A stretch of DNA of 64,000 bases. Origin: Escherichia coli (GTDB lineage: Bacteria > Pseudomonadota > Gammaproteobacteria > Enterobacterales > Enterobacteriaceae). The stretch is taken from the NCBI RefSeq assembly GCF_024502345.1, contig NZ_JALDNN010000001.1. One strand, given 5' to 3'. The notes under the pieces were generated by a model. The model ran no database searches. It was given only the letters and a program-made list of their open reading frames with translations, and was not told where the DNA came from. The position numbers and the translations under genes were made by a program. Below, in pieces: positions 55,678 to 58,105 of this stretch (within the stretch, counting starts at the first letter, position 1; the number at the start of each line of letters is the position of its first letter).

Positions 55678-56882
55678 TTACTGCTGATGTTTAAGGATAA
55701 ATTGACCTTTCGGCGCAACAGGGAAGCCCTGTTCGATGTCGTAAATCACATCACCACGTAAGATGGTTTTCGTGATACGCGCGCCAATGGTACGGCCAAC
55801 ATACGGGCTGACTTTGTGGCGATATTCCAGATCGTCATTGGTAAGAACATAGCTGCTATTCGGCTGAATGAAGACGAAGTCGGCATCTTTTCCTGGGGCG
55901 ATACGGCCTTTTTGCTGCAGACCGAAAATATCTGCTGCGTTAGTCGCCATTAATTTGCCGAACATTGGCAGAGACATTCCGCGTTTCTGTACCGCTTCAT
56001 CGAACATCACGTCCATACAGTTTTGCAGACCGGCAATACCGCCCCATGCTTCCATGATGTTGCCGGCTTTCATTTCCGGAGGGCATGGTGAGTGGTCGGA
56101 AACCAGGCAGTCGATTTCACCGTTAAACAGTTTTTCCCACATGCCTTTCTGGTTTTCCAGATCGCGGATCGGCGGTGAACACTTCGCCAGAGTACCAATT
56201 TCTTCGAACTGATCGGTATCCAGTACAAAGTAATGCGGGCAGGATTCACAAGTAACGTCCTGACCTTCCTGACGTGCACGAGTCACTTCCTCAACACCTT
56301 CCGGGCTGCTGATATGGCAAATGTGCAGACGGCAACCGGCAACTTTCGCCAGATACAGCACGCGGCGAATCGCTTCCACTTCGGTAAATACCGGACGCGA
56401 AGCCACATAGTCATGGGCAGTTACGCGACCTTCACGTTTCGCTTCTTCGCCCAGTGCGTCACAGATCAGCGCGTTTTCGCAGTGCACCAGCACCGGCTGC
56501 CCCAGTTCGCCCAGCTTCTGCGCACCTTTGAAGAACTGCCAGTCGTTTACATCACGGAAGTCGTTGTCGATACCGCGATCGCCACAGGTCGCAACGAAGC
56601 ATTTGAAGCCGACAACGCCCACTTCATCCAGCTCATGCAGACGGTCGATGTTGTAAGACACCAGGCCACCGAGTTGTGCCGCATCGATAGTTAGCTTGCC
56701 TTTAGCGGCATCGAACTTCAGTTCAATTGAAGCGCGGTCAACCGTTGCAGGCAGCTGGTTGAGCGGCATTTCGATCATGGTGGTGATACCACCTTTTGCC
56801 GCTGCGCGAGTACCGGTTTCATAACCTTCCCAGTGGCTACGACCCGGTTCAGAAATATGGGTGTGCGCATCAACCATGCCCG
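55678..56882 (-). pseudogene. allB: allB (allantoinase) 3' fragment, separated from 5' fragment by IS903-like insertion
   Basis: Frame continues from IS junction: ...[43 protein letters not shown]... to ...QFILKHQQ*. Confidence 0.88.
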
Positions 56883-57939
56883 GGCTTTGTTGAATAAATC
56901 AGATTTCGGGTAAGTCTCCCCCGTAGCGGGTTGTGTTTTCAGGCAATACGCACGCTTTCAGGCATACCTGCTTTCGTCATTTTGTTCAGCGCTCGTACCA
57001 GGGCCATAGCCTCTGCAACCTGACCATCGTAGTCACGCAGTGTCAGTGAACCCCCGAACAGCTGTTTTACCCGGTACATCGCCGTTTCCGCTATCGAGCG
57101 ACGGTTGTAATCTGTTGTCCATTTCCACCGCGCATTACTCCCGGTCATTCGCTGATTAGCCACTGCACGGTTACGGTCTGCATATTCACCGGGCCAGTAA
57201 CCCGCACCTTTTCGGGGAGGGATAAGCGCGCTGATTTTCTTACGCCGCAGTTCATCGTGACATAGCCGGGTATCGTAAGCGCCATCGGCGGCGGCTGACC
57301 TGATTTTCCGGTGGGTTTGCCGGATTAACCCGGGGAAGGCCTCTGAGTCCGTAACGTTGTTCAGCGACAGGTCAGCGCAGATGATTTCATGTGTTTTACT
57401 GTCAACGGCGAGATGCAGCTTACGCCAGATACGGCGGCGTTCCTGGCCATGCTTTTTGACTTTCCACTCGCCTTCACCGAAGACCTTCAGCCCGGTGGAA
57501 TCAATTACCAGGTGTGCGATTTCACCCCGGGTGGGCGTTTTGAAACTGACATTAACCGACTTTGCCCGCCTGCTGACACAGCTGTAATCCGGGCAGCGTA
57601 GCGGAACGTTCATCAGAGAAAAAATGGAATCAATAAAGCCCTGCGCAGCGCGCAGGGTCAGCCTGAATACGCGTTTAATGACCAGCACAGTCGTGATGGC
57701 AAGGTCAGAATAGCGCTGAGGTCTGCCTCGTGAAGAAGGTGTTGCTGACTCATACCAGGCCTGAATAGCTTCATCATCCAGCCAGAAAGTTATGGAGCCA
57801 CGGTTGATGAGGGCTTTATTGTAGGTGGGCCAGTTGGTGATTTTGAACTTTTGCTTTGCCACGGAACGGTCTGCGTTGTCGGGAAGATACGTGATCTGAT
57901 CCTTCAACTCAGCAAAAGTTCGATTTATTCAACAAAGCC
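56883..57939 (-). mobile_element. IS903-like insertion sequence, copy 2, with 9-bp target-site duplication
   Basis: 1057 bp; inverted repeats ggctttgttgaataaatc.../...cgatttattcaacaaagcc; direct repeat ccatgcccg at 56874-56882 and 57940-57948. Confidence 0.9.
56939..57907 (-). CDS. IS903-family transposase
   Basis: 322-aa ORF identical to 28865..29833 product. Confidence 0.88.
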   Translation of the reverse strand: MKDQITYLPDNADRSVAKQKFKITNWPTYNKALINRGSITFWLDDEAIQAWYESATPSSRGRPQRYSDLAITTVLVIKRVFRLTLRAAQGFIDSIFSLMNVPLRCPDYSCVSRRAKSVNVSFKTPTRGEIAHLVIDSTGLKVFGEGEWKVKKHGQERRRIWRKLHLAVDSKTHEIICADLSLNNVTDSEAFPGLIRQTHRKIRSAAADGAYDTRLCHDELRRKKISALIPPRKGAGYWPGEYADRNRAVANQRMTGSNARWKWTTDYNRRSIAETAMYRVKQLFGGSLTLRDYDGQVAEAMALVRALNKMTKAGMPESVRIA

Positions 57940-58105
57940 CCATGCCCGGCGAAACCACCAGACCAGACGCATCCATAACTTCTTTTGCATCGCCCAGATC
58001 CTGACCGATAGCAGCAATTTTCCCGCCTTTAACGGCGATATCTACAACGCGAGCTTCGTTTTCTAAAATAACGGTGCCGTTTTTAATGATTAAATCAAAA
58101 GATAT
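57940..58105 (-). pseudogene. allB: allB 5' fragment (codons 1-55); first codon reads ATA
   Basis: Minus strand after SD aggag reads ATA-TCT-TTT-GAT-TTA-ATC ([10 protein letters not shown]...) ending ...VVSPGM at the IS junction. Confidence 0.8.

Follow-up and report, generated by a model that had tools for sequence, protein, structure and literature searches.

What became of allantoinase in this strain of Escherichia coli, and by how many steps? Its gene, allB, is part of the operon gcl-hyi-glxR-ybbW(allW)-allB-ybbY-glxK (PMC10163214). In the 64,000-nucleotide stretch of DNA analysed here (the window), allB is not an uninterrupted reading frame with a canonical start: a mobile element splits it at codon 55/56 and its first codon reads ATA, so that the gene is a pseudogene. 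We consider it highly probable that allB was hit twice, by an ATG-to-ATA change that was inherited and, later, by a recent insertion of IS903B. Events of this kind are already known, and the locus is a textbook insertional pseudogene combined with an inherited start lesion, in which neither the mechanism nor the families are new. Its chief use is in annotation, where allB should carry a pseudogene flag that names both lesions, and in prediction of strain phenotype; it also shows that near-identical draft genomes can reveal the order in which two lesions arose in one gene. The gene and the element within it are laid out in the window as follows.

56883-57939, minus strand: copy of IS903B, 1057 bp long, its transposase gene running in the same direction as allB, sequence read directly
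57922-57939: terminal inverted repeat of the element, 18 bp, transposase-start end
56883-56900: terminal inverted repeat of the element, 18 bp, transposase-stop end
57940-57948: target-site duplication, right copy, CCATGCCCG
56874-56882: target-site duplication, left copy, CCATGCCCG
56939-57907, minus strand: IS903B transposase open reading frame, 322 amino acids from TTG, the length that PGAP annotates
57940-58105, minus strand: allB 5' fragment, codons 1-55 and the first base of codon 56
55678-56882, minus strand: allB 3' fragment, all metal ligands kept, residues 1-54 missing

The element in allB is IS903B, and it entered by simple insertion with a 9-bp staggered cut of the target. Its termini, GGCTTTGTTGAATAAATC, are perfectly inverted, with the first 18 bases matching the reverse complement of the last 18 at 18/18 positions, and the 9-bp repeat is identical on the two sides; by chance, two fixed positions would agree at 9/9 bases with a probability of 4^-9, or about 4e-6. 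The transposase scores 357.6 bits against the NCBIfam model of IS5-family transposases (NF033579, cut-off 140), and its Pfam domains, PF13737 (137.6 bits) and PF01609 (114.8 bits), make it a single IS5-family DDE transposase; a 307-amino-acid form, beginning with GTG, starts at 57862. Chromosomal copies with the PGAP label "IS5-like element IS903B family", which were used as the standard of comparison in place of the ISfinder reference, share 98.7-99.4% identity with the element over 1057 bp, and a 9-bp duplication also flanks each of the three other chromosomal IS903B copies compared. Published IS903B likewise has 1057 bp and 9-bp direct repeats, and often inactivates genes (PMC10513040). The preliminary description of this DNA, made from sequence alone, had an IS903-like element splitting allB with a 9-bp target duplication, and the length, the inverted repeats, the flanking repeats and the NF033579 match all bear it out. 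The insertion is much like the inactivation of mgrB by IS903B in Klebsiella (PMC10513040), with which it shares the 1057-bp length, 18-bp inverted repeats, one DDE transposase, the 9-bp duplication and the outcome, insertional loss of function. In this case, unlike that one, the target is allB, and the loss brings nothing like colistin resistance for which selection could act. A donor copy that is 100% identical is resident in the same genome.

When the element and one copy of the repeat are removed, allB becomes an open reading frame of 1362 nt, or 453 codons, on the minus strand, with 0 differences over 1362 nt from the uninterrupted allB of two close relatives (see below). The reconstructed protein scores 1003.6 bits against the NCBIfam equivalog model for AllB (NF005960 / TIGR03178; cut-off 688), covering positions 1-453 of 453, which puts the earlier identification of the gene on firm ground. 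Its residues 1-453 align with 3E74 and 8HFD, the solved structures of E. coli allantoinase, and the ligands of the binuclear metal centre (H59, H61, carboxylated K146, H186, H242 and D315) are all kept in it; we take H59, H61, H186, H242 and D315 to be metal ligands on the strength of 3E74. K146 has been described as a metal ligand of AllB (PMC10163214). Operon order and gene neighbours are also as in the solved E. coli AllB, and the differences from it are the ATA start, the replacement V240I and the physical splitting of the gene by the element. V240I is a conservative, lineage-specific change (codon 240, listed at window positions 57386-57388 of the reconstructed gene), two residues away from the metal ligand H242; valine occupies this position in 6/6 alleles from outside the lineage that were compared.

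The 9-bp duplication covers allB from position 2 of codon 53 to position 1 of codon 56, and the insertion point lies after the first base of codon 56, so that the break at codon 55 given by the preliminary description was right to within one base. The reading frame of the 5' fragment now continues for three codons into the element before it meets a stop (...S-P-G-M55-G-L-C-stop). The reading frame of the 3' fragment (55678-56877, 399 amino acids) opens at the duplicated ATG of Met55, which has no Shine-Dalgarno sequence, and an exact-protein look-up of its product returned no record. Neither fragment can give a complete enzyme, and the insertion would therefore be expected to remove whatever function the gene still had. 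The reading frames of allB and the transposase coincide and are separated by a TGA in the end of the element, so that operon transcription may run into the transposase gene, with translation uncoupled.

The other lesion lies at the far end of the 5' fragment, and three features define it.

58103-58105, minus strand: first codon of allB, ATA in place of ATG, read directly
58112-58117, minus strand: Shine-Dalgarno sequence AAGGAG, 6 nt upstream of ATA, read directly
58142-58144, minus strand: TGA, the nearest in-frame upstream stop, 13 codons up

The minus strand at this point reads AAGGAG-TTTGTT-ATA-TCT-TTT-GAT. ATG, GTG, TTG, CTG and ATH are absent from all 12 codons that separate the TGA from the ATA, and downstream the frame has no canonical start before Met44; the preliminary claim of an ATA first codon with no alternative start upstream thus stands. 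In an exact scan of 5,426 complete E. coli genomes, the 63-mer centred on this codon was found with ATG in 5,233 of them and with ATA in one, strain 2013C-3252 (NZ_CP027442.1), so the derived ATA allele is rare (1 of about 5,300 complete genomes). Among the individual loci compared, the first codon is ATA in L009, L011 and L004 (the locus of 2013C-3252) and ATG in L001-L003, L010 and L012. Direct reading of NZ_CP027442.1 confirms ATA at the start of allB, and PGAP annotates there a full-length, intact allB CDS that begins at the ATA itself. The preliminary description had asked whether reference allB genes share this codon but are annotated from a different start; the comparison gives 5,233 genomes with ATG, and the lone complete genome with ATA is annotated from that same codon. 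By silently accepting ATA as a start, PGAP conceals what is probably a hypomorphic allele.

The natural AUU starts of infC and pcnB in E. coli are conserved and regulatory. The start of allB resembles them, and the class of natural near-cognate starts at large (AUA/AUC/AUU/CUG; bioRxiv 10.1101/063800), in having AUN behind a normal Shine-Dalgarno sequence. Unlike the AUU of infC and pcnB, the ATA of allB is rare and derived, and for this reason we read it as a lesion rather than as something designed. In reporters, initiation at AUA reaches about 1-2% of the AUG level, individual constructs giving 0.02-3% (bioRxiv 10.1101/063800). By analogy, the ATA of allB would be a weak start and not an absolute null, and we infer from the reporter range that the older lesion made a strong hypomorph.

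The order of the two lesions follows from relatives, which were found by an exact-protein look-up with the AllW sequence of the window; it returned six contigs. With the element removed, the allantoin cluster of the window has 2 mismatches in 7455 nt with L009 (GCA_001484085.1, LLYC01000121.1) and 4 mismatches in 7455 nt with L011 (GCA_050022275.1, JBAOKM010000005.1). In both of these draft genomes allB starts with ATA and is uninterrupted, with a single copy of CCATGCCCG at the precise empty site. The LLYC00000000 record belongs to strain ccpm3961, a commensal E. coli that came from a preschool child in good health (PMC7133007). Since the ATA occurs in these near relatives and the element does not, the start change is older and inherited, and the insertion into allB is recent; the two lesions are independent of each other, as had been proposed. 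GCA_050022275.1 also shares an ompT::IS903 junction found at 28.8 kb of the window, so that the lineage already had a resident IS903B copy to serve as donor. The copy at that junction (28833-29889) and the copy in allB are identical at 1057/1057 positions, as expected for recent transposition from a resident copy. From these comparisons the insertion into allB is the most recent event of the series. It is also rare: the element is found at this site of allB in 0 of 5,426 complete E. coli genomes, and an exact scan of the GTDB species-representative genomes, a set to which the source genome does not belong, gave 0 matches to the 38-mer of the allB-IS junction. A search of the literature on allB plus IS903 yielded nothing relevant, only one irrelevant review.

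The cluster of strain 2013C-3252 is more distant, at 98.1-98.4% identity to the window. Its allB differs from that of the window at 7 sites, and a 526-bp tract without mismatches surrounds the start. The ATA of this strain may be an independent G-to-A change, or it may belong to an allB segment shared by descent or recombination. The possibility that the window comes from Shigella, raised by its IS load, the loss of ompT and its absence from the RefSeq complete E. coli genomes, was considered and is not supported; the nearest relative of the cluster is the commensal ccpm3961.

The proposed course of events would then be as follows. A G-to-A transition changed the start of allB from ATG to ATA in an ancestor of a commensal E. 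coli lineage, which would have left near-cognate initiation behind a good Shine-Dalgarno sequence and a strong hypomorph whose output was about one percent of normal, or lower. The second hit would have followed in this strain, or in a narrow sublineage that includes it, when an already resident copy of IS903B entered codons 53-56 by simple insertion, leaving a 3' fragment without a ribosome-binding site and without the first 54 residues, from which no functional allantoinase is expected.

The second IS903B copy deserves separate notice. It lies in inverted orientation relative to the copy in allB and truncates ompT after about codon 83 (region 28582-29889). Its flanks, GCCCCAGAT and TCGCTGAAA, form no target duplication, and on the far side it directly adjoins the 3' end of a gene for an IS3-family transposase; together these features imply that the remainder of ompT was lost in an IS-associated deletion. 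The ompT::IS903 junction also occurs in ENA metagenome assemblies.

Several other explanations of the locus were weighed against this one. One might suspect that the ATA arose in sequencing or assembly, with a true ATG start and only the insertion real, because it differs by a single base from 5,233 genomes. The same ATA is, against this, present in three independent assemblies, two of the same lineage (LLYC01000121.1 and JBAOKM010000005.1) and one an unrelated complete genome (NZ_CP027442.1), and the site is not a homopolymer. We regard an error as very improbable and effectively refuted by these assemblies, and the ATA as a real inherited allele. There is next to no chance that the inverted IS903B pair is a Tn903-like composite, or the trace of an IS-mediated inversion, and that allB was broken by rearrangement. 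The two copies, 27 kb apart, are indeed 100% identical and inverted, and the one in ompT is without a target duplication; against this, the copy in allB has a perfect 9-bp duplication on its two sides, the genes to its left and right are collinear with 2013C-3252 in order and orientation, and one relative has the ompT junction together with an intact allB site. A Tn903-like composite transposon was rejected on the same collinearity and on its outer ends, where GCCCCAGAT on one side and CCATGCCCG on the other differ and make up no target duplication. A reading that is still somewhat unlikely, but the most serious of those considered, is that allB with ATA was working at low expression before the insertion, so that the element was the only truly inactivating event. 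It draws on the strong AAGGAG with its 6-nt spacing, on the measured 0.02-3% of AUG initiation, on the 453-codon reading frame without further lesion in the relatives that carry ATA, and on the presence of the allele on two genetic backgrounds. The lineage, for its part, is apparently young (0-4 differences in 7.4 kb), so that the absence of decay says little; and since AllB binds allantoin with low affinity and works in stoichiometric complexes with AllW and GlxK (PMC10163214), a roughly 100-fold decrease would probably amount to a null phenotype.

The remaining alternatives invoke selection. One holds that loss of allB was positively selected in a gut lineage, as part of a recurrent, convergent inactivation of allantoin uptake and catabolism, as against neutral decay. 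The two independent lesions in one gene and the ATA on a second background are in keeping with it, as are IS903B copies next to allB in three other, unrelated genomes (L001, L002 and L003, the three complete-genome records that cover the whole query), in which the element sits in allW, at two different sites, or in ybbY, with its own 9-bp duplications and with allB intact. The rough expectation by chance, from about 4,600 chromosomal IS903-type places in 5,426 genomes, a 5-kb target and a 5-Mb genome, is about 4-5 IS903B insertions, so the three that were seen are no excess, and enrichment of IS903B in the allantoin cluster was rejected as a candidate on this count. Moreover, ATG allB is kept in >98% of genomes, and the ATA of 2013C-3252, in its mismatch-free tract of 526 bp, is maybe the same allele and not a second mutation. 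Selected loss is on balance a distinctly improbable account. Slightly less so, and still improbable, is the suggestion that ATA allB, which persists in a commensal lineage and recurs on a second E. coli background, is a naturally fixed low-output allele that tuned down both the enzyme and AllW, with IS903B as the final step of a selected, stepwise loss; if true, it would be a natural case of a metabolic enzyme, and the transporter coupled to it, being turned down by the choice of start codon.

Under the preferred explanation, an inherited start lesion followed by a recent insertion, the strain should lose allantoin as an anaerobic nitrogen source, a prediction based on the 64-kb window; a second allantoinase, for example of the PuuE type, may lie elsewhere in the genome, beyond the 64 kb. 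AllB is reported to bind and stabilise the allantoin transporter AllW (PMC10163214), and since AllW needs AllB, we infer that AllW-dependent uptake of allantoin is probably impaired too. Within the gcl-glxK operon, ybbY and glxK are located downstream of the element, which may lower the expression of both by polarity. A scan of the element for terminators and promoters gave no terminator or outward promoter above shuffle expectation, so that polarity on ybbY-glxK stays a conjecture. In view of the dependence of AllW on AllB and the position of the element, the preliminary idea of a block specifically at the step from allantoin to allantoate is probably too narrow.

As for the rest of the cluster, the preliminary description had called it intact. 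This is correct for allD, allC, allE, glxK, ybbY, allW (the allP of that description), glxR, hyi and gcl, which, like ybcF, ylbF, ylbE and fdrA, have the reading-frame lengths of the 2013C-3252 annotation. The claim goes too far for allR, which is cut by the end of the window (63426-64000), leaving the C-terminal 191 of its 271 codons visible, without a stop; allA and allS lie outside the window. In 2013C-3252 itself, ybbY, which is adjacent to allB, is flagged as frameshifted by PGAP.

The window is rich in other mobile elements. Next to the ompT copy of IS903B, at 29890-31600, there is a fragment of an IS3-family transposase followed by a copy of IS2 (orfA at 30332-30727 and orfB at 30685-31566). 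Further on are two identical 768-bp copies of IS1, at 32227-32994 and 37666-38433, neither of which has a target duplication. The IS3 fragment, IS2, IS903B and IS1 together make up a cluster of insertion sequences at the place where other strains have a DLP12-type prophage and the ompT region. Between the two IS1 copies, at 33500-36660, lies a lambdoid prophage remnant, with the reading frame of a repressor similar to cI and S24 peptidases (33502-34230) and, by fimZ, a 3' fragment of the intD integrase gene (36378-36656). The IS1 copy at 37666-38433 replaces the whole sfmA-sfmF fimbrial operon, about 5.9 kb that are present in 2013C-3252, between fimZ and folD. Finally, in the region 4346-6586, an IS186-type transposase reading frame (5031-6149, minus strand) adjoins a ybdK-like reading frame and is bracketed by a 390-bp direct repeat with 95% identity between its copies (4346-4735 and 6198-6586).
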